From NCBI GenBank assembly GCA_052139855.1, contig JBKQVS010000045.1, positions 657 to 64,656 on the forward strand: a DNA stretch of 64,000 nt, written 5' to 3'. This document shows, piece after piece, positions 2,851-47,636 of this stretch. This DNA is from Desulfobaccales bacterium (GTDB lineage: Bacteria; Desulfobacterota; Desulfobaccia; Desulfobaccales; 0-14-0-80-60-11). Below the pieces are notes generated by a model. That model worked only from the letters and a program-made list of their open reading frames with translations. It was not told where the DNA came from and did not search any database. Every line of letters starts with the position of its first letter. Position 1 is the stretch's first letter. A program made the position numbers and the translations under genes.

Positions 2851-3183
2851 TTATTTTGATTCGCCATCTTTCAGAGGAAACCTCTTTGCATTAGTAAGAT
2901 ACTCTTTCAAATCATCTTCATCTACCAAAATCTTTTTACCTAACTTTATGATAGGGAAGGGAACCAGCTTGCGATTTATCCAACTTCTGAAAGTGCCTTG
3001 AGTTATTCTCAAGACTTTAGAGACTTCTTCTACTGTCAAATATCTTTTATTTAGGATGGAATCATCATTCACAGCTTTTGCCAAATCCTTTAGAGGGGTT
3101 TCACGGTCTGATTTTCCAATCTTATCGCCTAACATATCTATAAGCTCGCCATTAGAATGTTTCTTATACTTGTTGGATACCAT
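2851..3183 (-). CDS. Excisionase/MerR-superfamily HTH DNA-binding protein (possible recombination directionality factor)
   Basis: 110-aa ORF. The segment LTVEEVSKVLRITQGTFRSWINRKLVPFPIIKLGKKILV resembles excisionase-family HTH domains. It overlaps 3138..3815 by 46 nt. An alternative ATG at 3135 lies 3 nt after the upstream stop. Confidence 0.6.
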   Translation of the reverse strand: MVSNKYKKHSNGELIDMLGDKIGKSDRETPLKDLAKAVNDDSILNKRYLTVEEVSKVLRITQGTFRSWINRKLVPFPIIKLGKKILVDEDDLKEYLTNAKRFPLKDGESK

Positions 3184-3815: not shown

Positions 3816-3853
3816 ATTACTCCTTAGCTTGGTTTACCTATTTATATAGCAGT

Positions 3854-3882
3854 TTGCGTTGCATGTCAAGCTTTTTTATAAT
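3854..3882 (+). promoter_or_regulatory. Sigma70-like promoter candidate (TTGCGT-17 nt-TATAAT)
   Basis: TTGCGT at 3854-3859, a 17-nt spacer and TATAAT at 3877-3882, pointing toward 4029..4563. Confidence 0.3.
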
Positions 3883-4028
3883 TAAGGAACGTTTATTATA
3901 AATGACCTTGTTAATGAGGCGTATGCTGAACTGAAAATGTCAGTTTTAGTATCGGATTTAGTTAACTTTTTATGCTATAAGGGGATTATGCGGCTTCCCT
4001 TGTCAAACTAAACATTTGGCTTAAAAAA

Positions 4029-4256
4029 ATGACAGACCCTTTCAAGCCCTATATCCAATCCCTGCAAGCTGATTTGGCGCGGTGCAACGCCTCAGAGCAT
4101 ACCCACAGGCCCGACCTCAAGATTCTCCTGGAATCCTGGGGGCAACGCCTCTCGGCCACCAATGAACCCCGGCAGGTTACCGATTGTGGTAACCCCGATA
4201 TTTTCTATTGGATGGTTCCATTTTTGACAATGGCAAAGAATTTGGGATTTTCTTGA
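4029..4256 (+). pseudogene. Remnant of the N-terminus of a type IIG/N6-adenine DNA methyltransferase-like gene
   Basis: 75-aa ORF. The stretch CNASEHTHRPDLKILLESWGQRLSATNEPRQVTDCGNPDI resembles, from memory, the conserved N-terminal block (ATEHTYRPAL...NEPKR..CGAPDF) of large methyltransferase/restriction fusions. It is truncated after ~60 aa and locally higher in GC than the rest of the island. Confidence 0.35.
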
Positions 4257-4302
4257 CATTACCCATAGGCTCATGGTGAATTAGGAATGATAAGGAAGAA
4301 TT

Positions 4303-4563
4303 ATGGGGGAGTTACTTGAGTGGTTGTTCAAAGTCGAAAACAAAAAAACTTGCCGTTTCATTGGCGTTATTTTGGTCTTGACGCCACTTTTATTCTTTTT
4401 CGGTGGAGGATTTCAAGGAGCTACTCTTGAAGGACCTATCTTTACTACTGGTGGACTTAGAGCGGTCTTCATTACAATTATGTCGGTTATGTTCATCATG
4501 GGGATTATGCTTATTTTGGTTGGATTTAGTAGACGTGAAAAAAATGGGGCCTTCAAGAAGTAG
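4303..4563 (+). CDS. Small membrane protein, unknown function
   Basis: 86-aa ORF with two clear hydrophobic segments (FIGVILVLTPLLFFFGGG and AVFITIMSVMFIMGIMLILVGF). Confidence 0.5.
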   Translation: MGELLEWLFKVENKKTCRFIGVILVLTPLLFFFGGGFQGATLEGPIFTTGGLRAVFITIMSVMFIMGIMLILVGFSRREKNGAFKK

Positions 4564-4600
4564 CGTGGGTAGATACTAAGTCCCCTTGCTCAGGTTCCTT

Positions 4601-4644
4601 GCCACTTGCTCGATGGGTATGTCTTAGAGCTGCTATTTTATGTC
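4601..4644. repeat. 44-bp imperfect direct repeat, copy A (partner at 5009-5052)
   Basis: 37/44 identical by hand alignment. The minus strand reads a decayed mini-ORF (MKRDIK*). Confidence 0.6.
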
Positions 4645-4720
4645 TCGCTTCATGTTTTTATCATTCTGCTATCCGAGAATGTTATGAGCAACGATTCGCA
4701 GCCTGGTTTTACTTGATATC

Positions 4721-4957
4721 CTAACATCTTATATACAATGATATAACCACTAATAATCCAGTAAGTAGGGCTAATACCCAAGTTGCCATTGCAAGAGTCC
4801 ATGTTTTATTTACAAGTTGTTCAGTATATCTTAATTTTAAGATATCATTAGCCACCATATAACCGATATGGTTCGGTGCTTCCATTCTCAACATAAATTC
4901 CATTATTTCTTGTACTGAACTTGTTAATAACATTTTCCTATCTTCTTCCTTAAACAT
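4721..4957 (-). CDS. Small tail-anchored membrane protein, unknown function
   Basis: 78-aa ORF with a C-terminal hydrophobic helix (WTLAMATWVLALLTGLLVVISLYI). Confidence 0.45.
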   Translation of the reverse strand: MFKEEDRKMLLTSSVQEIMEFMLRMEAPNHIGYMVANDILKLRYTEQLVNKTWTLAMATWVLALLTGLLVVISLYIRC

Positions 4958-5008
4958 TTTTAGCCTCCTAAATCTGGATAAACGGCTCAGCCCAGGCCCA
5001 GCCGCTCG

Positions 5009-5052
5009 GCCACCTGGTCAATGGGTATGTTTTTGAGCTGGTCTTTTATGTC
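5009..5052. repeat. 44-bp imperfect direct repeat, copy B
   Basis: Partner of 4601-4644. It lies within a minus-strand mini-ORF at 4987..5055 (MDIKDQLKNIPIDQVAERLGLG*). Confidence 0.6.
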
Positions 5053-5065
5053 CATATGTCACCAC

Positions 5066-5572
5066 TTATTCCTTTTTCTGTTCTTGTTCTTTCATCATTT
5101 TATGATAGGCAAAAGTGGCTATCATTCCCCTAAAAATTGAAAAATTTATGAATAATGCCACAATCACAACACTTAGATAACCAAAACGGAAACCTTGATA
5201 ATTCTTATTTAATCCTAAAATTATATTGGCAATACCTTCAAAAAAAACATGCACAAACATAATTGTGATACAAGTTCTACTCTTTTTATAAATGCCAAAT
5301 GTCAATAATGATAATATGACTATATCTACTATATCCACTGTACTTGCCATATTACTAACTAACTTGTAATATACTTCACGGCCATTTAGAAACAAAACAA
5401 ATAATGCAACACAAAATGCACCAGTTATAGGGTTGATAGTGATATGATTGGTATCAGTTAAGTGGATTGATTTTTTACAATGAGGACACCAATAACCATG
5501 AACTGTTTTCAATTTGTAACCATCATAATTACCACAGTCTGGACATTTGATATTGTTGTCAGCTTTTTTCAT
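5066..5572 (-). CDS. Zinc-ribbon membrane protein, unknown function
   Basis: 168-aa ORF with N-terminal CPDC...17 aa...CPHC and about four hydrophobic helices. Confidence 0.55.
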   Translation of the reverse strand: MKKADNNIKCPDCGNYDGYKLKTVHGYWCPHCKKSIHLTDTNHITINPITGAFCVALFVLFLNGREVYYKLVSNMASTVDIVDIVILSLLTFGIYKKSRTCITIMFVHVFFEGIANIILGLNKNYQGFRFGYLSVVIVALFINFSIFRGMIATFAYHKMMKEQEQKKE

Positions 5573-5679
5573 TTATACCGCTCTCCTTAAAACTGCATAA
5601 ACCTTTCAGCAGCCGCCGGGAGGTGGTTAAGGTTGCGGGGACAAAAAAACCGAACTGCACCCTCAGGGCATCCCGGCTC

Positions 5680-5965
5680 TTATCATTCAATCAACATAAT
5701 CGCTCCCCTCCTGGTGAGTGGGGCAGCTTTTAGAATAATTCCCTTATGGCATAAAGTGAGATGGTCTGTCAATAAGTTTACAAGAGGCATGGAGGTGAGA
5801 AATCCAGTCGCTTTTTACAATGTAAATCGCACTTAAAACCACTCAGAACGGCTTTTTCGGTTTAGGGAAGGGTAAGGGTAAGGGTAGAGGGAAAACGTTT
5901 AAAATCAGCCCCTCAAACGTGCATTCATAGCATGGAATGAGAACTTGCATTTTAATTGTGAGAAT
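5680..5965 (+). repeat. Non-coding module homologous, in inverted orientation, to 1-408
   Basis: Positions 5811-5838 (CTTTTTACAATGTAAATCGCACTTAAAA) match the reverse complement of 188-215 at 27/28 nt. The flanks match with indels. It contains the GGTAAG tandem tract at 5865-5890. Confidence 0.55.
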
Positions 5966-6157
5966 TCGAAAAAGGCTCATTTGTTTCTATGGGAATTGTG
6001 ACAATTGGATAGAGTTAAATGCTTAACTTATTTGAATCATTGGGGTATTCCCCCCCCCTATGGCAGAACGATGGCAAGATATAAATTGCCATTAAATTAT
6101 GACAATTGTTTATAGCATGGCGCACAGTCTAAAGCTGTAATGCCAATTGTGACAATA
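5954..6157. promoter_or_regulatory. Four copies of a 13-bp near-palindrome AATTGTGACAATT (iteron or operator candidates)
   Basis: Copies at 5954-5966 (AATTGTGAGAATT), 5994-6006 (AATTGTGACAATT), 6095-6107 (AATTATGACAATT) and 6145-6157 (AATTGTGACAATA), with start-to-start spacings of 40, 101 and 50 bp. Confidence 0.5.
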
Positions 6158-6242
6158 AAAATCATTTCAGTTAGCTACAACTAATTGAAATAACCCCTTT
6201 TTATGGGGAGGGGAGGCGTTCAACCACATTATCAACTTGTAA

Positions 6243-7241
6243 TCACAATGAATCAGGCATGATATATTCTTTACCAGTGGTAGGAATAAACGATGTCTTT
6301 GATAGCTTATGCATAAATGCATTTGTAAGTAGTTCATGTTCGACAATAAATCGCCCATAATTAGGCACTCCCCTATCTTTGTCTTTTAGTGATTCAATCT
6401 GCTTGATAAATTCGGATTCATATTCTCTATGAGTAATACCCCTAACCCACTGGTGAATAGTTTGTTTGATTATATTTCCATACCCTGGCCTCCTCTGGTT
6501 AACACGTTTAATTTCCTGTTTGTTCTTTCTTACAATGTAGTTTGTCAGCATGTTTGAATCAATATAGGCAAATATGAAGAATTGCTTTAAATTCAGTGCA
6601 TCTATATTACTTAAAGGCAGTGACAAACCTAACCGTTTGATTACCCTACGGCTTAGCACAAGCTCCATTCTGACAAACTCAGGATTATCTTCTGGTTTAA
6701 GATAAGTTCTTGTTCCTTTAGTAGCTGTTCTTATATCAGTTGTATAAAATGTATCTTCAATGTTGAATGACTTTTGTTTCTGGTATCTGAGGTACAATTT
6801 GTTGTCAAGAAATTCCTGAAAGTCTTCAAGATTTTCTGTGTAAAAATCAAAGGTAAGCTCTACTTGACTTAATTTGTGAAAGATGGAAAACTTGCTGAAA
6901 TAGCTATGGAATAAGTGTAATATCTCTTTGCTTGGGTCATGAATCTCTATTCTTGTTGTTGGTATCAACTCACCTTTAAATCTCATGTCATAGAACAGTT
7001 GAATGCTAATATCATTGTCACAATACGTCTTAGTGCGATTAAATTTACCTTTTGACAGAGGATTCTTTTTTGTCCGTTTAAACCCATTGGCACTTAATAG
7101 GTCACAAATTGGGTTTAGAAACCTAAGGTGAATATATGAAAGGGAAAGCCAATCAATACTTGCCCTAAGGGTAAAATCAGGAATGTAAGAATCGTCTGCA
7201 TTATTATAGGAGGTAAGTGGACTAAAGACTTCAAGGGTCAT
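6243..7241 (-). CDS. Putative Rep_trans/MOB_T-like replication initiator or relaxase
   Basis: 332-aa ORF. The motif pattern SIDWLSLSY ... VELTFDFY ... RTYLKPEDNPEFVRMELVLSRR resembles the blocks of rolling-circle Rep_trans proteins (iDwL, RiDlaiD, iY.K....R.El). This is recognised by eye only. Confidence 0.35.
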   Translation of the reverse strand: MTLEVFSPLTSYNNADDSYIPDFTLRASIDWLSLSYIHLRFLNPICDLLSANGFKRTKKNPLSKGKFNRTKTYCDNDISIQLFYDMRFKGELIPTTRIEIHDPSKEILHLFHSYFSKFSIFHKLSQVELTFDFYTENLEDFQEFLDNKLYLRYQKQKSFNIEDTFYTTDIRTATKGTRTYLKPEDNPEFVRMELVLSRRVIKRLGLSLPLSNIDALNLKQFFIFAYIDSNMLTNYIVRKNKQEIKRVNQRRPGYGNIIKQTIHQWVRGITHREYESEFIKQIESLKDKDRGVPNYGRFIVEHELLTNAFMHKLSKTSFIPTTGKEYIMPDSL

Positions 7242-7562: not shown

Positions 7563-7745
7563 AGGTTTGGGGGTGGCTCCCGGTTTTGTTCAAAGGTGCC
7601 ACAGGACCGCGCCGGTGTCAAGGGGAAGGCAGGGGAAGGGCAGGGCAAAGCCCACAGGGGAAGCGGCGCTGATGAGGGGCCGAGTCAGGGAAACCCGACC
7701 CCGGGGCCGGATACTGGGAGCAGCAACAGATTACCTCCGCTCCGG

Positions 7746-7767
7746 CCCTCCCCCCCGAGGGGGAGGG
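7746..7767. repeat. C-tract/G-tract hairpin (REP-like)
   Basis: CCCTCCCCC-CCGA-GGGGGAGGG, a 9-bp perfect stem. Confidence 0.5.
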
Positions 7768-7828
7768 GGCAGAGGGAAGAATCTGCTCCAACAAGGCCCT
7801 GGTGAAAGATTATTTTTCCAGGGAGGTT

Positions 7829-8104
7829 TTACTTTTTTGGCGCTCCGGCCGGGGTGGGTTCCGGGGTCACCCCTTCATCCTGCATTTTTTTCAGGTACTT
7901 TTCCGGGTCTTTCTTGAAGTCTTTATCGCAGCCCTCGCAGCAAAAATAGATGCGTTTGCCCTGGTAATCGACATAGGTGCTCTTGTCAATTTTGTCGCCC
8001 CGGACCGGGCAGACCGTCTGGGGTTTGGGGTCGGCGGCCCAGAGGCTCCCGGCGGCAAAGGCAGCCAGGGCCAGGGCCAGGATTACGGCTTGGAATTTTC
8101 TCAC
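7829..8104 (-). CDS. Secreted YHS/TRASH-type metal-binding domain protein
   Basis: 91-aa ORF with a signal peptide followed by CPVRG...YFCCEGC, as in YHS domains. Confidence 0.7.
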   Translation of the reverse strand: MRKFQAVILALALAAFAAGSLWAADPKPQTVCPVRGDKIDKSTYVDYQGKRIYFCCEGCDKDFKKDPEKYLKKMQDEGVTPEPTPAGAPKK

Positions 8105-8191
8105 ACGACTCTCCTTATGGGGGTTTTCACAGGTTCACATTGTCTAGATAAAATATTGTTCATGGATGGCCTGATTGTCAAGGGCATGATG

Positions 8192-8674
8192 CTAAGGCCC
8201 GGTCTCGCCGATTTTCTGGATGACCCATTTGCCGCCTTCCTGCCTCCAGGTGACATAGGTGTTGCCGGAATCGCTCTGGGGGCAGACAAAGGTATTGGGG
8301 CCTTTCTGCTTCCACATTTCGCCTTGGCGGAAATTGATCCGGAAGGTGTAGCCGTTGGGTTCATTAAAGAAAAAACCGTACCAGCCCTTCTGGGCGGCAA
8401 AATCTTTGGCCATCACCTCGTATTTGACCATCCGGTTGGTGACAACCTTCCCGGTGCCAATCTCATAACCCAGGTATTGCCAGGGGGAGGTTGTCGAGAA
8501 GCTGGCGAGGATGGCCGATTTATCTTTTCGGACTACGGCGTCAATGAATGAGCGCATGGCCTGGTCAGGGCCCTGGTCAGCCGCGGCGGCGCTATAATTC
8601 CAGGCGCAAACGGACAGGGTTAGGATCAGCGCCGATAGTATTCCCCATTGAACCATCCGGTTTTTTCCGAGCAT
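8192..8674 (-). CDS. Secreted hypothetical protein
   Basis: Track ORF 8192..8905 overlaps the upstream gene. The internal ATG at 8674 gives 160 aa with an N-terminal signal-like segment (WGILSALILTLSVCAW). Confidence 0.55.
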   Translation of the reverse strand: MLGKNRMVQWGILSALILTLSVCAWNYSAAAADQGPDQAMRSFIDAVVRKDKSAILASFSTTSPWQYLGYEIGTGKVVTNRMVKYEVMAKDFAAQKGWYGFFFNEPNGYTFRINFRQGEMWKQKGPNTFVCPQSDSGNTYVTWRQEGGKWVIQKIGETGP

Positions 8675-8720
8675 GTCTCGTACCTCCGTGATTTTGGTGA
8701 GTGGTTGGCGATTGGCAAAA

Positions 8721-10469
8721 TTAGTCTTTGGGCGGTTCCTCCGAATCCTTGAGGTCCAGGGCGCCGGATTTTTTGAGGGCGGCGAGGCCGCCCTGGAGGT
8801 TGACGGCGTTACAGAGGCCGGCGGTTTCGAGTTGGCGCAGGGCCTCGTAGGAGCGGACGCCGGAGTTGCAGACCACCAGAAGGCGCTTATCCGGGGGGAT
8901 TTCATTGAGGCGGTGGTTCAGGGTCTCCTGGGGGATATTGAGCCAGCGCGGCCCAAAGAGGTCGACGTAGGGGGCGGCGTTGGCCGCGCCCCGGACGTCC
9001 AGGCAGATGGCGTCGCCGGCCTTATCGGTCAAGAAGCACTGTTCGAAGTCGGCGACCTCGATGGTGCGGTTGTAGCCGTCCAGGATGTTTTCCAGGGTGT
9101 TGGCCACGGCGTTGACGATATCGAGGGCGGCGGCAAAGGGCGGGGCGTAGGCCACTTCCAGGTTGGACAGGTCTTGTAAGCTGGCCTTGAAGGGGAGCAG
9201 GGCGGCGATGCTGTTGATGCGGCCCACCAGGGCGTCGCCGTTGTGGCTGAGGCCCTGGGCCCCGAGAAGGCGCCGGGTGGCTTTATCCGCCACCAGGTGG
9301 AGATACATGAGGTCCTGGGTGGGGTAGAAGTGGGCCCGGTCGGCCTGGATCACCAGGGCGCCGGCGGCATCAAAGCCGGCGGCCGCGGCCTGGGCCAGGC
9401 TTAAGCCGGCGCCGGCGATGGCCAGGTCAAAGGTCTTCAGGGTGAAGGAGCCGACGATGCCGTTGAAGGTGGCGGCGCCTCCGGCCAGGTTGGTGCCGAT
9501 GACCCGGCCCTGGCGGTTGGCCAAGGAGCCGGAGGGAAAATAAACGGGTTGGCCGGTGATGAGGTGCAGGTTGTCGATGCAGTCGCCACCGGCGTAAATG
9601 CGGGGGTCGGAGGTCTGGAAGCGCGGGTTGACCGTGATGCCGCCGGTGGGAGAGACCAGCAGGCCGGCCTGGCGGGCCAACTCAGTATTGGGGACGGCGC
9701 CCACCGCGGTAATGACCAGGTCGGCGGGTAAGATTTCTTGTCCGGTGACTACTTCCAGGGCATGATCGTCTCCGGCGTGAGGCCGGATTTCCCGGACGGT
9801 TGCCGACAGGTGGAGGGTGACGCCCTGGTCCCGGAGATGTTTGGCGACCATGCGGGCCAGACCGAGCTCCAGGACGCCGGGAAGGACCTGGGGGGTGACT
9901 TCCACTAAGGCGGTCTCCAGGCCCCAGAGGTCGCTGACGGCCTCGGCCATTTCGACGCCGATGGCGCCGGCGCCGATGATGACGACGCGGCCCACCTCAC
10001 CTTTGGCGATGGCTTCCCGGACGGCCATGGCGGCGGGGAGATTCGAGACGTTCAGGACGCCGGGGAGGCCGGCCCCGGGGACGGGCAGGGGGCGGGGACG
10101 GCTGCCGGTGGCCAGGACCAGGTGGTCATAAGGGAGATTTTCCTCCCGGCCGGTGACCAGATCAAGGACCCGCACCTGTTGGTGGGGGCGATCAATGGCC
10201 AGGGCCCGGGTGCGGATTTTGACCCGGACGTCCTTGGCGTTTTCAAAAAATTCGGGAGTGCGGAGCATGTGGAAGCTGGTGCTCATCAACTCCTTGATAT
10301 CGCTGAGATCGCCGGAGATATAGTAGGGGATGCCGCAGCCGCCGTAGGAGATGTATTCGCCCTGATCCACCATGGTGACCTCAAAGTCGGGGCGGAGACG
10401 TTTGAGGCGGCAGGCCACCTTGGGACCCAGGGCTACGGCCCCGATGATGATGACGCGTTTCGGTTTCAT
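8721..10469 (-). CDS. FAD-dependent pyridine nucleotide-disulfide oxidoreductase (CoA-disulfide reductase/NADH oxidase-like) fused to a C-terminal rhodanese domain
   Basis: 582 aa with GxGxxG at the N-terminus (IIIGAVALG), a redox Cys context (YGGCGIPYY), a second dinucleotide fold (VVIIGAGAIGVE) and a rhodanese active-site loop (VVCNSGVRS). Confidence 0.8.
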   Translation of the reverse strand: MKPKRVIIIGAVALGPKVACRLKRLRPDFEVTMVDQGEYISYGGCGIPYYISGDLSDIKELMSTSFHMLRTPEFFENAKDVRVKIRTRALAIDRPHQQVRVLDLVTGREENLPYDHLVLATGSRPRPLPVPGAGLPGVLNVSNLPAAMAVREAIAKGEVGRVVIIGAGAIGVEMAEAVSDLWGLETALVEVTPQVLPGVLELGLARMVAKHLRDQGVTLHLSATVREIRPHAGDDHALEVVTGQEILPADLVITAVGAVPNTELARQAGLLVSPTGGITVNPRFQTSDPRIYAGGDCIDNLHLITGQPVYFPSGSLANRQGRVIGTNLAGGAATFNGIVGSFTLKTFDLAIAGAGLSLAQAAAAGFDAAGALVIQADRAHFYPTQDLMYLHLVADKATRRLLGAQGLSHNGDALVGRINSIAALLPFKASLQDLSNLEVAYAPPFAAALDIVNAVANTLENILDGYNRTIEVADFEQCFLTDKAGDAICLDVRGAANAAPYVDLFGPRWLNIPQETLNHRLNEIPPDKRLLVVCNSGVRSYEALRQLETAGLCNAVNLQGGLAALKKSGALDLKDSEEPPKD

Positions 10470-24645: not shown

Positions 24646-26172
24646 ATGAACTTGAACAAGAAGTTGACCAAGAGCGAGTTTCGCCAGCGGGCCGATAAGA
24701 TCCTGATGCGTCTGTCGCTAGAAGTGATGCCCTTCTGGGACGACAGTGCAGAAAAGCACCAACAACGGCTGGAGCGGGCCGCAGGTGATCCCCTGTATTT
24801 CTGCCGCACCTATCTGCCGCACTACTTCGCCCACGGCCCGGCGCCCTTTCACCATGAGCTGGTGCGGCTGCTGGAGGAGCGGCACGAAGAGGTGGTGACG
24901 CCCACGGCGGTGGCCGCCCCCCGGGAGTTCGCCAAAACCACAGTGTGCTCCTTCGGCTACGTCCTCCATCAGATTTGTTTCCGGCGGCGGCATTTCATCC
25001 TGATCGGCAGCGACACCGAAGACCTGGCCTCGGATCTCACCGGCTACATCTACCTGGAGCTGCTCTATAACGAGCGGCTGCACCAGGATTTCGGGGAACT
25101 GGCCAAAGGCAATAAGTCGGTGAACGATTTTGTGACCTTGAACGACATCCGGGTTAAGGCCCGGGGCCGGGGGCAGCGCCTCCGGGGCCTCAAGCACAAG
25201 CAGTGGCGGCCGGACCTGGTCATCCTGGACGACCTGGAGAATGACGCCAACGTGCGGAATCCGGAAATCGTCCAATCCATCCTGGACTGGGTGAAATCGG
25301 CAGTCTATCCCGCGGTGGATGCCCGGGGCACCCTGATGGTCATCGGCACCATTCTGCGGTGGCACAGCGCCCTGCACGTGATGCTGACCAGCCTGGATGA
25401 ACCCTACTGCAATTTCCAGCGGCGGATTTACCGGGCCTACCAGGATGACGGGTCGTCATTGTGGGAGGCCCGGCACCCGGTGAGCCGGCTGAAGCTGCAA
25501 AAGCAGCTGATGGGCACCGTGGCCTTCAACCGGGAGAAGATGAATGAACCGGCGCCGGACGGCGGCTTTTTCCAGGAGGACTGGATTCACTACTACCATC
25601 CCGACAGTTTGAAAGACCGGGACCTGGTGGTAACGGGTTTTTTCGATCCCTCCCTGGAGACCGGGGCCACCGCGGATTACAAGGCTTTTGTGACGGTGGG
25701 CTGGGACCGCAGGGAAATGGTGTTTTACGTGATGGACGCGGTCATCCAGAAGACCACTTTGGATCAGATTATGCGCACCATTTTCAACCGGCACCGGCAA
25801 TTCGGCTATCAAGTGGTGGGGGTGGAAGACAACCTGTTTCAGCGTCTCCTGCTCAAGGAGTTCGACCGGATCGGGGTGGAGCGCAGCCAAGTGCTGCCCC
25901 TTAAAGGGGTGACCCACCGCATCGCCAAGGAGACCCGGGTAGCCGGGCTGTCACCGCTGTTGGAGCGGGGCAAGATTCGCTTTATCCGGGGGCATTCGGA
26001 CCAGGAACTCCTGGTGGAGCAGTTGCTCTTCTTCCCGTCGCGGACCCTGCACGACGATGGCCCGGACGCCCTGGAAGGGGCGGTCGGTCTGGCGCGGGGC
26101 CTGCCGACGGGAGAGGCGCCGCGCTATATCCCGGTGAAGCCGCGCCTGTTCCAGAGCCGGGGAGCATTTTAG
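24646..26172 (+). CDS. Terminase large subunit
   Basis: 508 aa with a Walker-A-like PREFAKTT, Walker B LVILDDLEND and a C-terminal nuclease motif (HDDGPDALEGAV). Confidence 0.85.
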   Translation: MNLNKKLTKSEFRQRADKILMRLSLEVMPFWDDSAEKHQQRLERAAGDPLYFCRTYLPHYFAHGPAPFHHELVRLLEERHEEVVTPTAVAAPREFAKTTVCSFGYVLHQICFRRRHFILIGSDTEDLASDLTGYIYLELLYNERLHQDFGELAKGNKSVNDFVTLNDIRVKARGRGQRLRGLKHKQWRPDLVILDDLENDANVRNPEIVQSILDWVKSAVYPAVDARGTLMVIGTILRWHSALHVMLTSLDEPYCNFQRRIYRAYQDDGSSLWEARHPVSRLKLQKQLMGTVAFNREKMNEPAPDGGFFQEDWIHYYHPDSLKDRDLVVTGFFDPSLETGATADYKAFVTVGWDRREMVFYVMDAVIQKTTLDQIMRTIFNRHRQFGYQVVGVEDNLFQRLLLKEFDRIGVERSQVLPLKGVTHRIAKETRVAGLSPLLERGKIRFIRGHSDQELLVEQLLFFPSRTLHDDGPDALEGAVGLARGLPTGEAPRYIPVKPRLFQSRGAF

Positions 26173-26177
26173 GTGGA

Positions 26178-26226
26178 GTGAGCGGTGAGCAGTGAGCGGT
26201 AAGCAGTGAGCAGTAAGCGGTGAGCA
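26178..26226 (+). repeat. Seven tandem heptamers GT[G/A]AGC[G/A]
   Basis: GTGAGCG GTGAGCA GTGAGCG GTAAGCA GTGAGCA GTAAGCG GTGAGCA, starting 6 nt after the terminase stop. Confidence 0.8.
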
Positions 26227-26295
26227 GAAAGACAAAATTGACCAACCGTTGTCTGGACACCGCGCCCAGCTCGCGGCGAATGGTTAGGAGAGACT

Positions 26296-27531
26296 ATGGG
26301 GCTGAAAGATTTATTCGGGAGGATGTTTAAAGAGACGGTGCGGCCGGAGACCCGGGAGTTGTCGGCGGTGAGCCTGGCAGAACGCTGGAGCAGCTACCCC
26401 AGTGCGGGGCTGACTCCGCACCGCCTGGCGGGAATCTTCCGGGAGGCGGACCAAGGCAATGTTTATCGCCAGATGGAGCTGTTCGAGGAAATGGAGGAGA
26501 AGGACGCGCACCTGACGGCGATTCTCCAGACCCGGAAAATGGCGGTATTGGGCAAGGACTATGAGGTGATGCCCTATGCCAATACCCCGGAAGATGCAGA
26601 GATTGCGGCGCGGGTGGGGGAGATGGTCTACGGCATCCCCGGACTGGAGGAGGCCCTCCTGGACCTGCTGGACGCCATCGGCAAAGGGTTTGCCCTGTGC
26701 GAGATCCTCTGGGAGGTGACGGGTGGCCAGGCCCGGGTTTCGGAGTTGCGGTGGATTCCCCAGAAGAAAGTGACCTTCGGGGAAGACTGGAAGCCCCGCC
26801 TGCTGACTCCCGAGGCCAGTTGGCAAGGGATTCTGCCCCCGGTCTGGAAGGCGATCTACCACCGCTACCGGGCCAGAAGCGGCCATGCGACGCGGGCGGG
26901 AGTGCTCAGGGTGGTGGGCTGGATGTATTTGCTGAAGAATTTTGCCTTGAAGGATTGGGCGGCGTTCAACGAGGTGTTCGGGATGCCGCTCAGGCTGGGG
27001 AAGTATGACAGCACCGCCTCGCCGGCGGACCGGGAGGCCCTGGTGCAGGCCATCCGGAACCTGGGCTCCGACGCCGCAGGGGTGATCAGCAAGTCCACAG
27101 AGATCGAATTTGTGGAGGCCACCTCCCGGTCGGGGGGCGCCAACCCGTACCAGCTCATGGCGGATTTTTGCAACCGGGAGATGTCCAAGGCGGTTTTGGG
27201 CCAGACCCTGACGACGGATACCACGGGGTCCACGGGGACGTTTGCCGCGGCCAGCGTGCACGCCGAGGTGCGCCGGGACCTGGTGGAAGCCGACGCCCAG
27301 GCCCTGGCGGCCACCTTGCGGGAACAACTGCTGCGGCCCCTGGTGGGATTCAACTTCGGCTGGGACAAGCCGGTGCCCTGGTTCCGCTTCAGGTTTGAAG
27401 CGGAAGAGGACCTCAAGACCTTGTCCATGGTTTACCGGAACCTGGCGGCCATGGGCGTGCCCCTGGACATGGAGCACGTGGCGGAGCGTTTCGGCATCCC
27501 CCTGGCGGGGGCCGGCGGGAAGGGGAGCTGA
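26296..27531 (+). CDS. Portal protein, Mu gp29-like (DUF935 type)
   Basis: 411 aa. The N-terminal block LAGIFREADQGNVYRQMELFEEMEEKDAHLTAILQTRK is characteristic of Mu-type portals, and the gene lies after the terminase. Confidence 0.8.
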   Translation: MGLKDLFGRMFKETVRPETRELSAVSLAERWSSYPSAGLTPHRLAGIFREADQGNVYRQMELFEEMEEKDAHLTAILQTRKMAVLGKDYEVMPYANTPEDAEIAARVGEMVYGIPGLEEALLDLLDAIGKGFALCEILWEVTGGQARVSELRWIPQKKVTFGEDWKPRLLTPEASWQGILPPVWKAIYHRYRARSGHATRAGVLRVVGWMYLLKNFALKDWAAFNEVFGMPLRLGKYDSTASPADREALVQAIRNLGSDAAGVISKSTEIEFVEATSRSGGANPYQLMADFCNREMSKAVLGQTLTTDTTGSTGTFAAASVHAEVRRDLVEADAQALAATLREQLLRPLVGFNFGWDKPVPWFRFRFEAEEDLKTLSMVYRNLAAMGVPLDMEHVAERFGIPLAGAGGKGS

Positions 27532-27584
27532 CTGAGGTGGTGAGGGACACGAGGCATCGAATCATATTAAGGAGGAAGGGGCTG

Positions 27585-27929
27585 ATGCGGATCGGGAAGA
27601 AACTGGTGATCGCCGGAGTCATTATGGGGTTGTTGATGGGCACCATCATGGGATGCCAAACCTTGAAGAGCGCTTTCTGTTCCCCCACGGCGCAGGAGAT
27701 TGCGGATGCCACCGACTTCGTGGCCAATGCCGACTCATTATTGGCCTTCCTGAACACCCTGGCCCCCGACGCCGAGGTGACCGCGGTGATAGCCGCCCTG
27801 AAGATTGCCAAAGCCGTGTTCGATCAAATCAAGTCCGGCATCTGCGTGTCGTCGGAGCAGCAGGCCGCGGCCCAGGCCGCCATCAACGCGGGCCAAACGA
27901 TGGCCATGAAGCTGGGGTATAAGCCGTGA
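27585..27929 (+). CDS. Small lipoprotein, unknown function
   Basis: The ATG at 27585 is preceded by AGGAGGA. A signal peptide with lipobox (LLMGTIMGC) is followed by an Ala-rich helical body. The 3' end overlaps the next gene start (GTG 27926). Confidence 0.55.
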   Translation: MRIGKKLVIAGVIMGLLMGTIMGCQTLKSAFCSPTAQEIADATDFVANADSLLAFLNTLAPDAEVTAVIAALKIAKAVFDQIKSGICVSSEQQAAAQAAINAGQTMAMKLGYKP

Positions 27930-28723
27930 AAGGGTTTGGGTGGCGCAAGGAACATGCCGACCCCCGGGATTTTACCCACGGGGATATCCCCGAAGTATCG
28001 GACCGGGTTCAGGCAACGGCAGAAAGCCCGGAGGTGGATTTCTTTAAATGGATCGGTCCCATCAAGGACCAGGGGAATCTTGGTTCCTGCGTTGCCAATA
28101 GTATCGCCGGCGCCTATGAGTTCGACGGCATCAAGACCACGGGCACGTATACCTCCGTGTCCCGCCTTTACCTCTATAAGGCGGCCCGGCGATTGGGAGG
28201 CTTTAGCGGGGATTCCGGGGCCTATATCCGGGACGGGATGCGGGCTCTGGTGAGACTGGGGGCGCCTCCGGAAGCCCTCTGGCCCTATCAGGTGGAAACC
28301 TTTGATGCGCCGCCTGATTTCGTGGCCTCCGGATATGCCCAGAACTTTGCGGCCCTGCGTTATGTCAGGCTCAAAAATCTGGCTGAGATCAAGGCGTATA
28401 TCCGGGGCGGCTTCCCGGTGGTCTTTGGGTTCACGGCGTTTCCCTCCATTGATGAGGTGAAAGAAGACGGCTGGGTGCCAGTGCCAAAATCGGGGGACCG
28501 GCCGGCGGGGGGGCACGCGGTCTATGCCTGCGCCTATTCCAACCTGAGGCAGTCGAAGTATTGGCACGAGCCAGCCGGCGCCATCGGGTTCATAAACAGC
28601 TGGGGAGATTGGGGGGATAAGGGCAAAGGCTGGCTGCCCTATGCATATTTTCAACAGGGTTTCTGTGATGACTTCTGGGCTTTGATTTCGGCGAAACACC
28701 CGGATGAGAACGACTTCGACTGA
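27926..28723 (+). CDS. Papain-family (C1) cysteine peptidase
   Basis: 265 aa with the catalytic triad contexts DQGNLGSCVANS (Cys), GGHAVYACAY (His) and INSWGDWGDKGKGW (Asn-Ser-Trp). Confidence 0.8.
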   Translation: MKGFGWRKEHADPRDFTHGDIPEVSDRVQATAESPEVDFFKWIGPIKDQGNLGSCVANSIAGAYEFDGIKTTGTYTSVSRLYLYKAARRLGGFSGDSGAYIRDGMRALVRLGAPPEALWPYQVETFDAPPDFVASGYAQNFAALRYVRLKNLAEIKAYIRGGFPVVFGFTAFPSIDEVKEDGWVPVPKSGDRPAGGHAVYACAYSNLRQSKYWHEPAGAIGFINSWGDWGDKGKGWLPYAYFQQGFCDDFWALISAKHPDENDFD

Positions 28724-28985
28724 TGCCCCCGTGATCATTGATGAGGGGAAGCAATGGCGTTGGTCCAAATGGATCATGAACAGTATGTTCGCGGTCCTCC
28801 TGGTCCTGGTGGGGATCGTCCGAGACTGCGGGAACGGCGAGGGATTTTGAAGGGTCAGAACCAGGGGGACAGGGTCCGGGCCTGAGGCCGGGTGACGGCC
28901 GGTCGCGGGCGCGGCGACGAGCCGAGCCGCAGCATGGGGATAGGTTGGGAGCAAGGCCTCAAATAAGACCATGGAGTGAGGAGAG

Positions 28986-30026
28986 ATGACGATGACGTCG
29001 AAGGCGGTAAGCCAGGACCAGACTCCTGCCCTGCCCGAATGGATCAGAGTGCTGCCCCTGGGCACCGTGGAGTTGTCGGACCACCGGGAACCGTTTCTGG
29101 TGGACGAAGCGTCGCTTCGGTCCATGACGGCGGATTTCCGCACCCGGGGAGTAGATCTGGTCATCGATTACGAGCACCAATCCCTGCAGGGGGAGCGGGC
29201 CCCGGCAGCGGGCTGGATCAAGGACCTGGAGGCCCGGGGCGACGGGCTGTGGGCCCGGGTGGATTGGACCCAACAAGCCCGGGATTATCTGGAGAAGAAG
29301 GAGTATCGGTACTTCTCGCCGGTGCTGCGGCTGGACCCCGAAACCCGCAAGCCGGTGGCCCTGATGCACGTGGGCTTAACCAACGTGCCGGCGATCAAGC
29401 ACCTGCCGCCCCTGGTGGCCAGGTGGGGCGGGAAAACTGCGGCCCCGGGAGGGCCGCGGCCGGCGAAACCGGCGGTCAGGGCCCGGGCGGGAGACATGGA
29501 CTCAATAAAGGAGAAGGGGATGATGGTGGAACAGCTCAAACGCCTGATGGGTTTGGAGCCCGAGATGGCAGAGGAGGCGGTATGCGGCAAGGCGCTGGAG
29601 GCGTTCCGGGACCTGGCCGGGGCCTTGAATCTGCCGGGTGAAGTATCCGTGGCGCAACTGAAGGGGGCGGTGGAAGCTTTGAAAGCCGGGGCATCGCGCC
29701 TGCTCAAGGCCGAGGAGGCCCTGGAGGCTCTCAAAGTCCGCCTGTCGAGTGAGACGGCCGACCGGCTGGTGGAAGAAGCCCTGAAGGCCGGCAAGGTCAG
29801 CCCGGCCCAACGCGGTTGGGCGCTGGAATATTGTCGACGGGACCCGGAAGGTTTCCAGACCTATGCGAACCGGGCCCCGAAACTGGTGCCCACCGGGGAG
29901 GAACTGCAACTCCTCCGGGAGGATCACCAGGATGAGAGCGGCTTGCTCCCGGAGGAGATGGCCGTGTGCCGCTCCCTGAATGTTGCTCCGGAAGCCTACC
30001 TGAAGGCCAAGGCCCAAACGGGGTAG
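28986..30026 (+). CDS. Prohead protease/scaffold, Mu gpI-like
   Basis: 346 aa. The N-terminal block WIRVLPLGTVE...VDLVIDYEHQS...AAGWI...YRYFSPV follows the Mu I-protein pattern. The C-terminal half is helical and Ala/Glu-rich, like a scaffold. Confidence 0.75.
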   Translation: MTMTSKAVSQDQTPALPEWIRVLPLGTVELSDHREPFLVDEASLRSMTADFRTRGVDLVIDYEHQSLQGERAPAAGWIKDLEARGDGLWARVDWTQQARDYLEKKEYRYFSPVLRLDPETRKPVALMHVGLTNVPAIKHLPPLVARWGGKTAAPGGPRPAKPAVRARAGDMDSIKEKGMMVEQLKRLMGLEPEMAEEAVCGKALEAFRDLAGALNLPGEVSVAQLKGAVEALKAGASRLLKAEEALEALKVRLSSETADRLVEEALKAGKVSPAQRGWALEYCRRDPEGFQTYANRAPKLVPTGEELQLLREDHQDESGLLPEEMAVCRSLNVAPEAYLKAKAQTG

Positions 30027-30112
30027 CTGCCGCAGGGAGAGTCTTGGGGGAAGAGCAGCAGGAAGGTTTTCGGCTGGATGAGATTAACCAATACAAGCGG
30101 AGGTAGAAGGAT

Positions 30113-30511
30113 ATGTCAGGATTAACCCGTGACCGGGCTACGCCATACCGGGAAGGTATTGAGATTGAATACCCGGTGGCAGCCAACACGAAAATCTACG
30201 CCGGCTCCCTGGTATGCATCAGTGCCGCGGGATATGCGGTACCGGCGGCGGACACCAGCGGTTATCGGTTCGCCGGGGTGGCCTTGGAACAGGTGGACAA
30301 CAGCGAGGGCGGCAAGAGTGTGAGGCTGCGACGGGCCGGGGTCTTCGAGTTCGACGCGGTGTCCATTAGCCAGGACATGGTGGGAGCGGCCATGTACGCC
30401 GCGGATGACCACACCTTTGATGACGCCGCCGGTCCCACCAATGACATCAAAGTGGGCCTGTTGGTCAAATACGTCTCGGCCACGAAAGGCTGGATCGATA
30501 TCGCCAGGTAA
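30113..30511 (+). CDS. Head decoration/cement-like protein (DUF2190-like)
   Basis: 132 aa, beta-rich, positioned between the protease and the major capsid gene as in many Mu-like and HK97-like head modules. Confidence 0.5.
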   Translation: MSGLTRDRATPYREGIEIEYPVAANTKIYAGSLVCISAAGYAVPAADTSGYRFAGVALEQVDNSEGGKSVRLRRAGVFEFDAVSISQDMVGAAMYAADDHTFDDAAGPTNDIKVGLLVKYVSATKGWIDIAR

Positions 30512-33188: not shown

Positions 33189-34379
33189 ATGGCTTTGAAA
33201 GGCGTGGCGATCACGATTCAATATACCGCCTGGGATACTTCGGCCAATGCCCCCAAGACCGGTGATGCGGCTAACCATACCCTCAAGGTAATCAAGGACG
33301 GGACTGCGGCTACCCCCACCAATAGTCCGTCGGAAGTGGACGCGACGAATTGCCCCGGGGTTTACAAACTGGCTTTGACGGGGGCGGAAATGGGGTACAA
33401 CACTGTTTCTGTGGCTGGTAAAAGTTCAACTGCCAGCGTCGCTATCATCCCAATCCACATCACCACGGAAGGGGGCAACCTGGATGCGGCGGTGAGCAGC
33501 CGGGCCCCGGAATCCGGCGGCAATGTTGCCGCGGTCAAAGCCAAGACAGATAACTTACCGGCCTCGCCAGCGGCCGTGGGTTCGGCCATGACTCTCACCA
33601 GCGCCTATGATGCAGCCAAAACCGCCGCGCCGGAATCCGGGGGCAACGTGGCGGCGATCAAGGCCAAGACGGACAACTTGCCATCCGACCCGGCCAGCAA
33701 TACCCAGGTCAATACGCGGTTGGCCACCTCAGGCTATACGGCTCCCGACAACACCGACATTGTGGCCATCAAGGCTAGGACCGATAACCTCCCCGCTTCT
33801 CCGGCGGCTACCGGGGATATACCTGCTGCCGCCACCATTGCCGCGGCAGTTTGGGGCAACGCCAGCCGGACCTTGACTTCCTTCGGCAGCCTCGTAGCCG
33901 ACATCTGGGCTTATGCCACCAGAACGCTTTCTTCTTTCGGGGCCCTGGCAGCCGATGTTTGGAGCGTGGGTACCCGGTCTCTCACCGACAAGACCGGATT
34001 CACGATCTCGGGGACAAAGCAGACCCTGGATGCCTTACAAGATCTCTCCCAGGCCGGGGCCCAGGCAGGGGCGACCGCGGCTCTCAATGCCTATGATCCG
34101 CCCACCAAAGCCGAAATGGACGCGGCCCTGGCCGCCCTGCACGACATCAGCGTGGGAGAACTGTTGGCCGGGGATCTGTCGGACAGCCTGAGTTTTCCGG
34201 CCAACTCCCTGGCGGACCGGCTCCGCAAGCTCTTCTGGATCCTCTGCAACCGCATGGCCATCGTGGATGCGACCGGGGCTTTCACGGCATACAAGGGCGA
34301 CGGGGCGACTCCCGGGGCCACCGGGACCATCACGGATAACGGCACGAACACGGTAAGGAGTGCACCGACATGGCCATAA
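33189..34379 (+). CDS. Fibre-like structural protein with internal repeats
   Basis: 396 aa with three copies of ESGGNVAA[VI]KA[KR]TDNLP[AS].PA and three copies of W....R[ST]L[TS]. Confidence 0.5.
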   Translation: MALKGVAITIQYTAWDTSANAPKTGDAANHTLKVIKDGTAATPTNSPSEVDATNCPGVYKLALTGAEMGYNTVSVAGKSSTASVAIIPIHITTEGGNLDAAVSSRAPESGGNVAAVKAKTDNLPASPAAVGSAMTLTSAYDAAKTAAPESGGNVAAIKAKTDNLPSDPASNTQVNTRLATSGYTAPDNTDIVAIKARTDNLPASPAATGDIPAAATIAAAVWGNASRTLTSFGSLVADIWAYATRTLSSFGALAADVWSVGTRSLTDKTGFTISGTKQTLDALQDLSQAGAQAGATAALNAYDPPTKAEMDAALAALHDISVGELLAGDLSDSLSFPANSLADRLRKLFWILCNRMAIVDATGAFTAYKGDGATPGATGTITDNGTNTVRSAPTWP

Positions 34380-45321: not shown

Positions 45322-46377
45322 ATGTCTCTGATAGACCTTCCCCAGACGAAATGGGGCAGCGGCACCGGCCGCCAGGTGATTTTGAAAGGCGATTTCGCCA
45401 AGATCGAGGAGGCGGTGACGGAGGCCTTCGAAGTCACCCGGGGTCCCGGGCTGGAATACGTGGACAGCGCCACCCTGCGGGTCAACGCCACGGCCGATTG
45501 TAAGGCCCGGGCGATGCTGTGCGGTTTTCCCTCCCCCCTGGCCCGGGGCCACTGGGTGGACGGGGGCCTGAGCGACGGCCGCTACCGGGAAAACGCCGCG
45601 CCGGTGAGCCTCAATCTGGCCACCGCCGGTCATCTCTGGGGCACCGAGAAGTCCGACCAGTGGTATGCGGTCTATGCCCTGGCGGGAGCCAACGACGCCA
45701 TCTTCTCCCTGAAAGCCATGCCGGTCATCCGGGTGGCTTCCCAGGACAGCCAGGTGATTACCCTGAGGAACAACGCCAATGGGGCCAACATCGGGTATGG
45801 CTTTACCGCCAACGAACTGGCGGGGGCCGGCCTCCTGATCCTCAGCGGGGCTTCCCGGGGGCTGCTCCGGGCAATCACCGCCAACAATAACGACAACGCC
45901 ACCGGGGGCACCATCACCTATAGCGGCGCGGCCCTGAGCCTGGCCCAAGGGGATTGGGGCGTGGTCCTGCCCAGCACCAACTTCCGGTACCTGGGCATGG
46001 GGTTTAACGATACCTCCGGCAACCTGGCGCCCTTTTACCAGGAGGCCGGCCGCACCACTTACCGCAGCCCCCGGCAGTTGTGCAGCGGGGCCATTAACGG
46101 CTACACCCTGATGGACCTGGGTCTGATGGCCCCGCCCACGGCGTCCGGGCTGACGGGGTATGCCGCGGCTGCGGCGGGCTACGACGTGAAGCTGGCCGTG
46201 TCATACGACGGCAGCACCCCGGCCCTGGTGGTGCACGGCAGCCCGCCGTCGGGCGACTTCCAGGGAGCGCGGGGGGCCATCCCCTTTGCCTGCCAGGTGT
46301 TGGACGGCGGCCGGGTCTATCTGAACAACGACAACACCGCCAATCAGGCGGTCAAGGTCACGGGTTGGAGGGAATAA
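45322..46377 (+). CDS. Tail fibre/receptor-binding-like protein
   Basis: 351-aa Gly/Ala/Asn-rich beta-type sequence after the host-specificity gene. Confidence 0.4.
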   Translation: MSLIDLPQTKWGSGTGRQVILKGDFAKIEEAVTEAFEVTRGPGLEYVDSATLRVNATADCKARAMLCGFPSPLARGHWVDGGLSDGRYRENAAPVSLNLATAGHLWGTEKSDQWYAVYALAGANDAIFSLKAMPVIRVASQDSQVITLRNNANGANIGYGFTANELAGAGLLILSGASRGLLRAITANNNDNATGGTITYSGAALSLAQGDWGVVLPSTNFRYLGMGFNDTSGNLAPFYQEAGRTTYRSPRQLCSGAINGYTLMDLGLMAPPTASGLTGYAAAAAGYDVKLAVSYDGSTPALVVHGSPPSGDFQGARGAIPFACQVLDGGRVYLNNDNTANQAVKVTGWRE

Positions 46378-46637
46378 TGACCCTGGATGGCAAAAAAACC
46401 TATATCACCGCGGTAGCGGCGGCCTTGGCCAGTTTTGCCCTGGCCATGGGGTGGCTGACCAAAGAACAGTACCAGGTGGTCCTGGGCCTGTTGGGGTCCC
46501 TGGGGCTGGCGGCGCTGCGGTCCGGGGTGGCCAGGGGCGCCACGGATAAGGCCGCGGCCGGCGAACCGGACGAGGCGGGGGCCGGGCCCGGAGGGTCCCA
46601 GTCCGCGGCCGGGTGCGGCGCCGGCGGTAACGGCTAG
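46377..46637 (+). CDS. Holin-like membrane protein
   Basis: 86 aa from an ATG that overlaps the upstream stop (TAATG), with GGAGGG upstream, two hydrophobic helices and a charged Ala/Gly tail. Confidence 0.45.
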   Translation: MTLDGKKTYITAVAAALASFALAMGWLTKEQYQVVLGLLGSLGLAALRSGVARGATDKAAAGEPDEAGAGPGGSQSAAGCGAGGNG

Positions 46638-47207: not shown

Positions 47208-47636
47208 ATGATCGAATATCCATGGATGGCGATTGCCAGAAGGAAACTTGGAATCCACGAAATCCCCGGCCCGGAGGCGAACGCCTTTATCGTGGAATGC
47301 CTGGAATCCACGACCCTGGGGTATCCTGAAAATCAATCGGATGAGACGGCCTGGTGTTCCGCCTTTGCCAACCGGGTCATGCAACTGGCCGGGTATGATG
47401 GCACCAATAACGCCTGGGCGAGATCGTGGCTCGATTGGGGCCGGGAGCCGACCGATGGAGAGTTCGGCGCAGGGGTAATAGTGATCCTGGAGCGGGGGGC
47501 AAACTCCGGCCACATCGGGTTTCTGGAGGATTGGGAGGATAACCGGGTAAAGCTCCTGGGCGGCAACCAGGGGAATGCCGTAAGTGAAGCCTGGTTCCCC
47601 ATGAGCCGGGTTTTGGGGTATCGGGTGCCTGCCTGA
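47208..47636 (+). CDS. Endolysin, NlpC/P60-CHAP-like (TIGR02594-type pattern)
   Basis: 142 aa with a Cys context ETAWCSAFANRVM and a His context GHIGF, at the end of the phage cluster after holin-like genes. Confidence 0.65.
   Translation: MIEYPWMAIARRKLGIHEIPGPEANAFIVECLESTTLGYPENQSDETAWCSAFANRVMQLAGYDGTNNAWARSWLDWGREPTDGEFGAGVIVILERGANSGHIGFLEDWEDNRVKLLGGNQGNAVSEAWFPMSRVLGYRVPA

Follow-up and report, generated by a model that had tools for sequence, protein, structure and literature searches.

What do a lipoprotein and a papain-family cysteine peptidase do between the portal gene and the protease gene of a Mu-like head module? The question is raised by a stretch of 64,000 nucleotides from a Desulfobaccales bacterium (contig JBKQVS010000045.1, positions 657 to 64,656 of the forward strand), called here the window, in whose own numbering coordinates are given. 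A phage-like element in it carries, directly behind a Mu-type portal gene, a gene for a 114-aa lipoprotein precursor (27585-27929) and, coupled to it, one for a 265-aa xylellain-type C1A cysteine peptidase (27926-28723). An earlier analysis, referred to as the sequence-only reading, had placed both genes at these positions, where we find them, and had suggested that they fill the slot of the Mu gpF-like head morphogenesis gene and might act with the particle. The comparisons reported below lead to another view. The pair does not replace gpF. In Mu-like phages of Desulfobaccales/Syntrophobacterales-type hosts, and in more distant phages, it normally resides in the leader of the late operon or among the lysis genes, after the late activator and ahead of the terminase. 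The two genes form one old, co-inherited and portable unit, for which we favour, tentatively and at slightly less than even confidence, the function of an accessory lysis/envelope module that was inserted into the portal-protease spacer of a short-portal, gpF-less sub-lineage.

Two overlapping genes and their products

Both genes lie on the plus strand. The lipoprotein gene begins 53 nt past the portal stop, with an ATG at 27585; a ribosome-binding site AGGAGG (27571-27576, plus strand), read from the sequence, is found 8 nt 5′ of this start. The peptidase gene begins with a GTG at 27926, which overlaps the stop codon of the lipoprotein gene (GTGA). Products of 114 and 265 aa were also called independently for the identical contig in public assemblies. 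A scan of positions 26000-30200 revealed no sigma-70-type promoter, and no terminator was found after 28723; both scans used an E. coli-type consensus, which may not fit this host.

The peptidase carries the three motifs DQGNLGSC, GGHAV and NSWG. It matched Pfam Peptidase_C1 (PF00112) with 27.5 bits, for a cut-off of 20.7 (E=3.9e-6), and its database homologues carry the same domain. By sequence, the nearest solved structure was xylellain from Xylella fastidiosa (3OIS), aligned over residues 2-254 with E=1.4e-28, and the Cys, His and Asn motifs fell in register with it. The catalytic residues Gln49, Cys55, His197 and Asn224 (codons 28070-28072, 28088-28090, 28514-28516 and 28595-28597, plus strand), as well as W226, align to xylellain and to cathepsin K, and all five were invariant in an alignment of 20 sequences reaching down to 39% identity. 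The complete papain-type catalytic set described in the sequence-only reading is therefore in place. An AlphaFold2 model of the protein (pLDDT 84.3) gave 3OIS as the top Foldseek match (E=1.2e-20, TM-score 0.78), followed by cathepsins. Like xylellain, the window peptidase has no signal peptide, and both share a short N-terminal extension with a G-W...D-x-R-D motif, the alignment starting at residue 2. A hydrophobic N-terminal extension was seen in at most 3 of 141 C1 homologues. Sequence and predicted fold place the protein clearly within the xylellain-type C1A group, and proteolytic activity is predicted for it. Its dN/dS ratio was 0.10-0.24, compared to 0.06-0.17 for gpT, portal and the large terminase subunit TerL.

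Xylellain-type C1A genes are known to have been acquired by giant viruses and, horizontally and more than once, by tailed phages (Myoviridae, Siphoviridae; PMC10380794), and we found such genes dispersed over numerous contigs of viruses and giant viruses, with varied surroundings. Elsewhere, xylellain-type genes have no dedicated lipoprotein partner, whereas the window peptidase is coupled to one, within a phage-derived element.

The precursor of this partner starts with MRIGKKLVIAGVIMGLLMGTIMG, followed at the lipobox Cys by CQTLKSAFCSPTA. In it, a basic n-region leads into a hydrophobic core of 14 residues and the lipobox I-M-G-C, and MRIGKKLVIAGVIMGLLMGTIMG with the following Cys passes the PROSITE PS51257-style lipoprotein rule (basic n-region, Cys within 15-35). 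Positions 27585-27653 (plus strand) encode the signal peptide, and 27654-27656 are the codon of the lipobox Cys. This Cys was present in 24 of 25 aligned diverse members of the family, and two further Cys (C32 and C87 of the precursor) in all 25; the protein is presumed to be disulfide-bonded. The residue at position +2 was Q, E or A, and never D, the +2 sorting rule being established for enterobacteria and not for Desulfobacterota; the lipoprotein is probably anchored to the outer membrane. The mature protein of 91 aa (residues 24-114) is predicted to consist of a 12-residue tether and a three-helix bundle (helices 13-33, 40-60 and 67-86 of the mature model; AlphaFold2, pLDDT 84.7), and contains only four prolines. 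A Foldseek search of the model against the PDB produced no match better than E=0.7, so that the fold gave no functional lead, and the lipoprotein matched nothing in Pfam, PHROGs or PADLOC. The peptidase did not match PADLOC either, at E<=0.01, nor did the lysis candidates of the element. The lipoprotein evolves faster than the peptidase, with a dN/dS of 0.22-0.39 (about 0.3, against about 0.15). Its family is small: a profile search among 1.84 billion representatives recovered 30 clusters at 50% identity (about 150 at 90%), whose members are all about 107-138 aa long. Every member with a readable context has a C1 gene next downstream.

The pair in other genomes and the portal-protease slot

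Loci related to the window are designated below by their L or P numbers; most of them are metagenomic contigs, in which holins and spanins were called from size and hydropathy only. In every pair locus found, the lipoprotein and C1 genes overlap, by ATGA or GTGA. Two main contexts were observed. The head slot is occupied in the window, L001-3 and L091-93. In L004-11 and the P0011 contig, the pair stands upstream of the terminase genes.

The second context was best documented in four independent lineages of true transposable Mu-like phages, L004, L007, L009 and the P0011 contig, whose peptidases are 62-66% identical to that of the window. Of these, L007 encodes a Mu transposase C-terminal domain, a MuB-like ATPase, GemA and Gam. 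In all four, a gene for a lipoprotein of 110-115 aa overlaps the peptidase gene (ATGA), and the pair lies upstream of those for the small and large terminase subunits (TerS/TerL). Its neighbours there encode a CHAP endolysin, 77-82% identical to that of the window, proteins of 59-76 aa with two hydrophobic segments, and proteins of 127-139 aa that combine an N-terminal membrane segment with a coiled coil. The CHAP gene is at most 1.5 kb from the pair in L004, L007 and the P0011 contig, and also in L256, where it is 1 kb upstream. Altogether, in 5 of 7 lineages a CHAP endolysin, holin-like proteins, or both lay no more than about 1.5 kb from the pair.

More distant pairs were found in three low-GC contigs, L255-257. 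The lipoprotein is there only 22-32% identical to that of the window, and is followed, with a 4-nt overlap, by a C1 protein of 247-249 aa that is 31-33% identical. Because lipoproteins this divergent still precede a C1 gene with the same overlap, the pairing is old and probably functional. Adjacency and overlap are kept from 92% down to 22% lipoprotein identity. The lipoprotein thus behaves as a partner dedicated to the peptidase, in line with the partner role that the sequence-only reading had considered. No lipoprotein homologue was found in about 150 loci whose C1 is at most 46% identical to that of the window (bacteria, archaea, viral contigs and giant-virus bins). In a neighbour-joining tree, the C1 genes paired with the lipoprotein fell into two separate clades, the L255-257 branch being too long to place.

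We then turn to the slot itself. The 411-aa portal gene (26296-27531, plus strand; Pfam Portal_Mu, E=5.1e-110) precedes the pair, and a Mu I-type head maturation protease/scaffold gene (28986-30026, plus strand; Mu-like_Pro, E=3.3e-71; phrog_328) follows it. This is the position held by the gp30/F gene in Mu and by gp7 in SPP1, which encode Phage_Mu_F (Mu_F) proteins; sharing the position implies no homology. Mu_F (PF04233) had no Pfam match in either protein of the pair or in the 20 largest open reading frames (ORFs) of the element, and tblastn with three Mu_F queries produced no match in the window. The window portal is also a short form, without a C-terminal extension of about 120-140 aa; the portals of relatives that carry Mu_F have 529-551 aa.

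To see how common this arrangement is, we surveyed the 80 viral loci whose portals most resemble that of the window (identity 52-85%), as the sequence-only reading had proposed; 70 of them contain both the portal and the protease. Mu_F lay between these two genes in 63 of the 70 and was absent in 7, which bears out the statement that it normally follows the portal in Mu-like modules. None of the 80 loci had a C1 or a lipoprotein gene in the portal-protease slot, so a C1 peptidase within a capsid module is indeed unusual. Modules lacking Mu_F include L175, L176, L195, L243, L245 and L248, and the gap between portal and protease is 137-391 nt in 6 of the 7.

The closest pair-less relative is L175, whose portal and protease are 85% and 70% identical to those of the window. 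It looks like an empty site, with neither the pair nor Mu_F: its portal stop is followed by a 285-nt spacer (2310-2595) and then by the protease, the start of which shares the motif GAGTGAGGA..ATGACGATG with the window protease. Since this pair-less relative also lacks Mu_F, the absence of Mu_F is a property of this sub-lineage, and loss of Mu_F and gain of the pair were therefore separate events. Either the pair entered the portal-protease spacer on its own, or L175 has lost it. Conversely, relatives of the window hold the pair and Mu_F together, in different places: the order portal, Mu_F, protease is found in L009 and the P0011 contig, and L004 has a portal-Mu_F fusion. The idea that the pair had taken over the gpF slot is not supported by either finding. 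By its domain content the peptidase is neither a Mu_F protein nor a Mu_F-fused effector, and a lipoprotein that is exported, as predicted here, cannot be a head-internal protein like Mu gp30/F.

A weak version of the slot idea is nevertheless kept alive by L031, a different Mu-like module whose portal is 19% identical to that of the window. Positions 2721-4746 of this locus encode, in order, the portal, a C92-like papain amidase (weak Pfam match), an unrelated lipoprotein (LLSSGC), a C1 peptidase and a Mu-like protease, with no Mu_F. In L084, a relative of L031 (TerL 57% and C1 56% identical), Mu_F follows the portal and the C1 gene is in the lysis cassette. As the window group and L031 were both found through C1 searches, their frequency is not fairly comparable with that of the portal survey.

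The element carrying the pair

The phage-like genes extend over 25 kb, from about 22.7 to 47.7 kb of the window, between ftsH-folP and cvpA-mazG. They comprise two HTH_17 genes, TerS, TerL, and head, tail and lysis-type genes; neither integrase, transposase nor replication genes were found between 22700 and 47700. After the protease come a cement protein, the gpT capsid protein, Mu gp36 and gp37, tail genes and the CHAP enzyme. The element also adjoins ftsH in other species-level metagenome-assembled genomes of Desulfobaccales/Syntrophobacterales type (L001/2, L092, L094), the conserved flank being seen on the ftsH side, as the fetched loci end before the cvpA-mazG side. Synonymous divergence between the window and L092 was 0.38 for ftsH and 0.40-0.49 for genes of the element, and dN/dS ranged from 0.06 to 0.28 across the element. 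The element looks like a vertically inherited, domesticated structural cluster, and it may be gene-transfer-agent-like. Within it, the peptidase and the lipoprotein are under purifying selection.

One related locus departs from this picture. In L094 (MFD01721.bin.1.156), several single-base indels shift the frames of the lipoprotein, C1 and protease I genes (7657-10028), while the flanking TerL, portal, cement and gpT genes are intact. A local error of long-read assembly or pseudogenisation may account for these frameshifts.

Two lysis candidates are encoded at the far end of the element. The first is a putative holin of 90 aa (46365-46637, plus strand), proposed from its two hydrophobic segments and its position beside the CHAP gene. 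It has no match in Pfam or PADLOC, and its C-terminal motif (LGLAALR.GV) is resembled in a small membrane protein encoded upstream of the pair in L255. The second is the CHAP-domain endolysin candidate (47208-47636, plus strand; Pfam CHAP, E=1.3e-5), which by tblastn is 82% identical to its homologue in L004 and 77% to that in L007.

Between the peptidase and the protease, a small putative gene at 28731-28850 (plus strand) would encode a membrane peptide of 39 aa with a single pass, VIIDEGKQWRWSKWIMNSMFAVLLVLVGIVRDCGNGEGF. This ORF is retained in L001, L092 and L094, where the differences are an in-frame indel and synonymous changes; L091 and L093 lack it. RNA folding of the 281-nt stretch 28715-28995, across the spacer after the C1 gene, showed no signal (z=-0.97). 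Further downstream, in the gpT-gp36 region, a gene at 33189-34379 encodes a 396-aa product with three tandem repeats of about 40 aa (…ESGGNVAA[VI]KAKTDNLP[AS]…); the length of this region varies among related elements, and L094 is about 2.7 kb shorter there. The window also contains a low-GC island at 1088-7241, unrelated to the Mu-like element, with a third-codon-position GC content of about 0.3, compared to about 0.8 for its neighbours, and two serine-recombinase genes on the minus strand (1088-2806 and 3138-3815).

Possible roles of the pair

Three lines bear on the function of the pair: its lysis context, the domain fusions of C1 proteins, and the I42 inhibitors that neighbour C1 genes in cellular genomes. 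Taken together, they lead us to favour the accessory envelope or lysis role. C1 genes without the lipoprotein are found in comparable surroundings. In the Mu-like phage L084 such a gene has Mor on one side and, on the other, a GH108 endolysin with i- and o-spanins; in L082 and L065 it immediately precedes the terminase genes. The endolysin of Alicyclobacillus phage MMB025 (L171, 3884-6145, 753 aa) consists of Peptidase_C1, Ig-like, Rv2525c GH-like and PG_binding_1 domains, so that here a papain-family domain serves as one of the modules of an endolysin. In BFVD, too, peptidoglycan-binding or muramidase domains are joined to the C1 fold in several proteins of Caudovirales.

Additional lysis factors that are specific to a lineage and act on another layer of the envelope have been described before (10.1101/2025.06.24.661397). 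As in systems with accessory enzymes or modular endolysins (mycobacteriophage LysA/LysB, corynephage LysZ, MMB025), the family is usually placed beside the endolysin in lysis cassettes. Unlike modular endolysins, the window peptidase stands alone, has no wall-binding module, is coupled to a lipoprotein and belongs to a presumed diderm host, and the window pair, in contrast to lysis accessory enzymes, lies outside the lysis cassette.

In the scheme we favour, the peptidase, having no signal, would accumulate in the cytoplasm and would reach the periplasm only once a holin opens the inner membrane. Its lipoprotein partner would position or restrain it at the interface between outer membrane and peptidoglycan, where the enzyme would cut envelope proteins or peptide links and so help the CHAP endolysin to break down the envelope. 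The localisation of the two proteins, their physical interaction, the substrate and the role of the pair in lysis are what we infer here. A more specific form of the scheme, which we regard as improbable, makes the pair a hitherto unrecognised, protease-based lysis step of diderm phages: the outer-membrane lipoprotein would capture the peptidase released by the holin and direct it at proteins of the outer membrane, or at the protein tethers that link this membrane to peptidoglycan, thereby supplementing or replacing spanins, and the recurrent move into head operons lacking Mu_F would couple its dose to particle production.

Several observations weigh against a lysis role. The functional evidence for the pair is all positional, and any gene inserted just behind the late promoter of a Mu-like phage falls among lysis genes. 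A distance of 18 kb separates the pair from the holin candidate and CHAP genes in the window. The lipoprotein is modelled as a helix bundle of a generic kind, for which structural comparison was uninformative. A Pfam survey of neighbours in 73 viral loci, with C1 genes about 35-40% identical to that of the window, showed no consistent lysis neighbour. In about 72 cellular C1 loci, the only recurrent neighbour was a chagasin-type I42 inhibitor, which points to an inhibitor and not to an anchor. Finally, a C1 gene with a lipoprotein gene upstream has entered the portal-protease junction at least 2 times, in both cases in modules lacking Mu_F, and a pure lysis role does not predict this. The cultured-phage database contained only three weak C1 matches, no Mu-like phage being among them. 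The density of lipoprotein-like ORFs was 0.081/kb near C1 genes and 0.047/kb far from them when the 9 homologous-pair loci were included, and about 0.06/kb near C1 genes once these were removed, that is, no clear enrichment.

The I42 neighbours lead to the main rival, which we consider unlikely as matters stand: a protease-inhibitor pair, akin to toxin and immunity, in which the lipoprotein would inhibit the peptidase and shield the envelope of the producer or of sibling lysogens, the target lying elsewhere (host takeover, anti-defence, or competitors). Chagasin I42 represented 4 of 139 neighbour ORFs of cellular C1 genes, and tblastn brought the count to 5-6 loci. Such genes stand beside signal-less xylellain-type C1 genes in L152 (8936-9373), L149 (779-1282), L107 (7505-7858), L145 (8871-9317) and L100 (4510-4809). 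Some of the C1-adjacent inhibitors have a lipobox or a signal peptide (L152, L149, L145, L162) and some do not. A small lipoprotein or secreted protein beside a signal-less C1A enzyme, as in L152, L149 and L145, resembles the organisation of our pair, and an outer-membrane-anchored, chagasin-like lipoprotein inhibitor of papain-like enzymes, Cpi1, has been described in Pseudomonas (bioRxiv 10.64898/2026.06.02.729523). The higher dN/dS of the lipoprotein is also what this rival would lead one to expect, and strict co-inheritance with overlapping frames fits a matched stoichiometry. However, chagasin I42 is an Ig-like beta sandwich, whereas the model of the window lipoprotein is all-alpha, and neither Pfam nor Foldseek gave a match to I42, cystatin or staphostatin. 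The two proteins of the pair are moreover predicted in different compartments, the scan with the E. coli-type consensus showed no promoter from which the lipoprotein alone could be expressed in a lysogen, and PADLOC matched neither protein.

Virion packaging, an o-spanin function and a neutral moron are less likely than either the lysis/envelope role or the inhibitor pair. The first of these goes back to the sequence-only reading, and we give it a slim chance: the peptidase would be packaged near the portal of heads lacking Mu_F and ejected into the envelope or cytoplasm of the next cell, the lipoprotein of a resident element conferring periplasmic immunity or superinfection exclusion. Proteins that travel in the head, among them effectors and polymorphic toxins fused to Mu_F, are known from the portal-adjacent Mu_F slot (PMC5576092, PMC5512222). 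In the window the pair is inside the head operon and co-oriented with it, and the window group and L031 represent two independent modules lacking Mu_F that have a lipoprotein and C1 between portal and protease. Gene position alone is nevertheless uninformative on packaging, and neither protein has a Mu_F domain or a known capsid-targeting element. L175 and six other modules lacking Mu_F have an empty slot, and the frameshifts of L094, if real, would suggest that the pair is dispensable. At least 6 other lineages hold the pair far from head genes, and four independent lineages of Mu-like phages place it upstream of the terminase genes, among genes of lysis type. The pair is thus commonly found with no link to particle genes, a situation that the sequence-only reading had itself named as a refutation and that speaks against the particle-linked role proposed earlier.

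An ordinary moron, with no part in lysis or in the particle and some unrelated benefit to the host or lysogen, has an even slimmer chance. The scattered and heterogeneous contexts of xylellain-type C1A genes, and their reported repeated acquisition by tailed phages, would suit such a gene. Its own promoter or terminator was, however, not detected with the consensus used. The linkage to a dedicated lipoprotein family is tight and ancient, the lysis-region context is consistent in 5 of the 7 lineages, and purifying selection acts on the pair in a vertically inherited element.

Spanins (lambda Rz/Rz1, Mu gp23/gp23a-type) share several traits with the pair, namely a small, probably outer-membrane lipoprotein with conserved Cys, a place among late or lysis genes, and a diderm host. 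The least probable reading, very unlikely in our opinion, takes the lipoprotein as the o-spanin of a two-component spanin, with a downstream transmembrane and coiled-coil protein as its partner and C1 as a passenger between them; it draws on L004 and L009, where a protein of 127-132 aa that combines an N-terminal transmembrane segment with a coiled coil comes directly after C1, on L084, where a canonical i-/o-spanin pair accompanies a C1 without the lipoprotein, and on the lipoprotein being the only lipobox ORF of the window element, none other having been noticed by eye in the inspected stretches of related phages, but the constant neighbour of the lipoprotein is C1, the transmembrane protein is missing nearby in the window and L255-257, the window lipoprotein gene is neither embedded in nor adjacent to an i-spanin gene (its neighbours being portal and C1), its predicted product is a compact helix bundle with a peptidase partner and not the short, proline-rich, unstructured chain typical of o-spanins, and a gene order with the lipoprotein first and apart from the membrane protein is, from what a published spanin survey reportedly shows, atypical.

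Three features of this system appear to be new: a lipoprotein family that serves as dedicated partner, the strict association of this family with a C1 peptidase in the lysis regions of phages, and the repeated presence of a lipoprotein with C1 in the portal-protease junction of Mu-type heads lacking Mu_F. For annotation, the lesson is that a gene behind the portal is not thereby a head protein, the same cassette being found in two modules of related genomes. The host element is of possible interest in itself, as a Mu-like structural cluster that is apparently vertical in Desulfobaccales-type genomes and maybe gene-transfer-agent-like. If the accessory lysis/envelope role is true, a papain-type peptidase with a dedicated outer-membrane lipoprotein would be a new type of component for the lysis cassettes of diderm phages, and would provide the first testable role for the large and functionally orphan xylellain-type C1A family.

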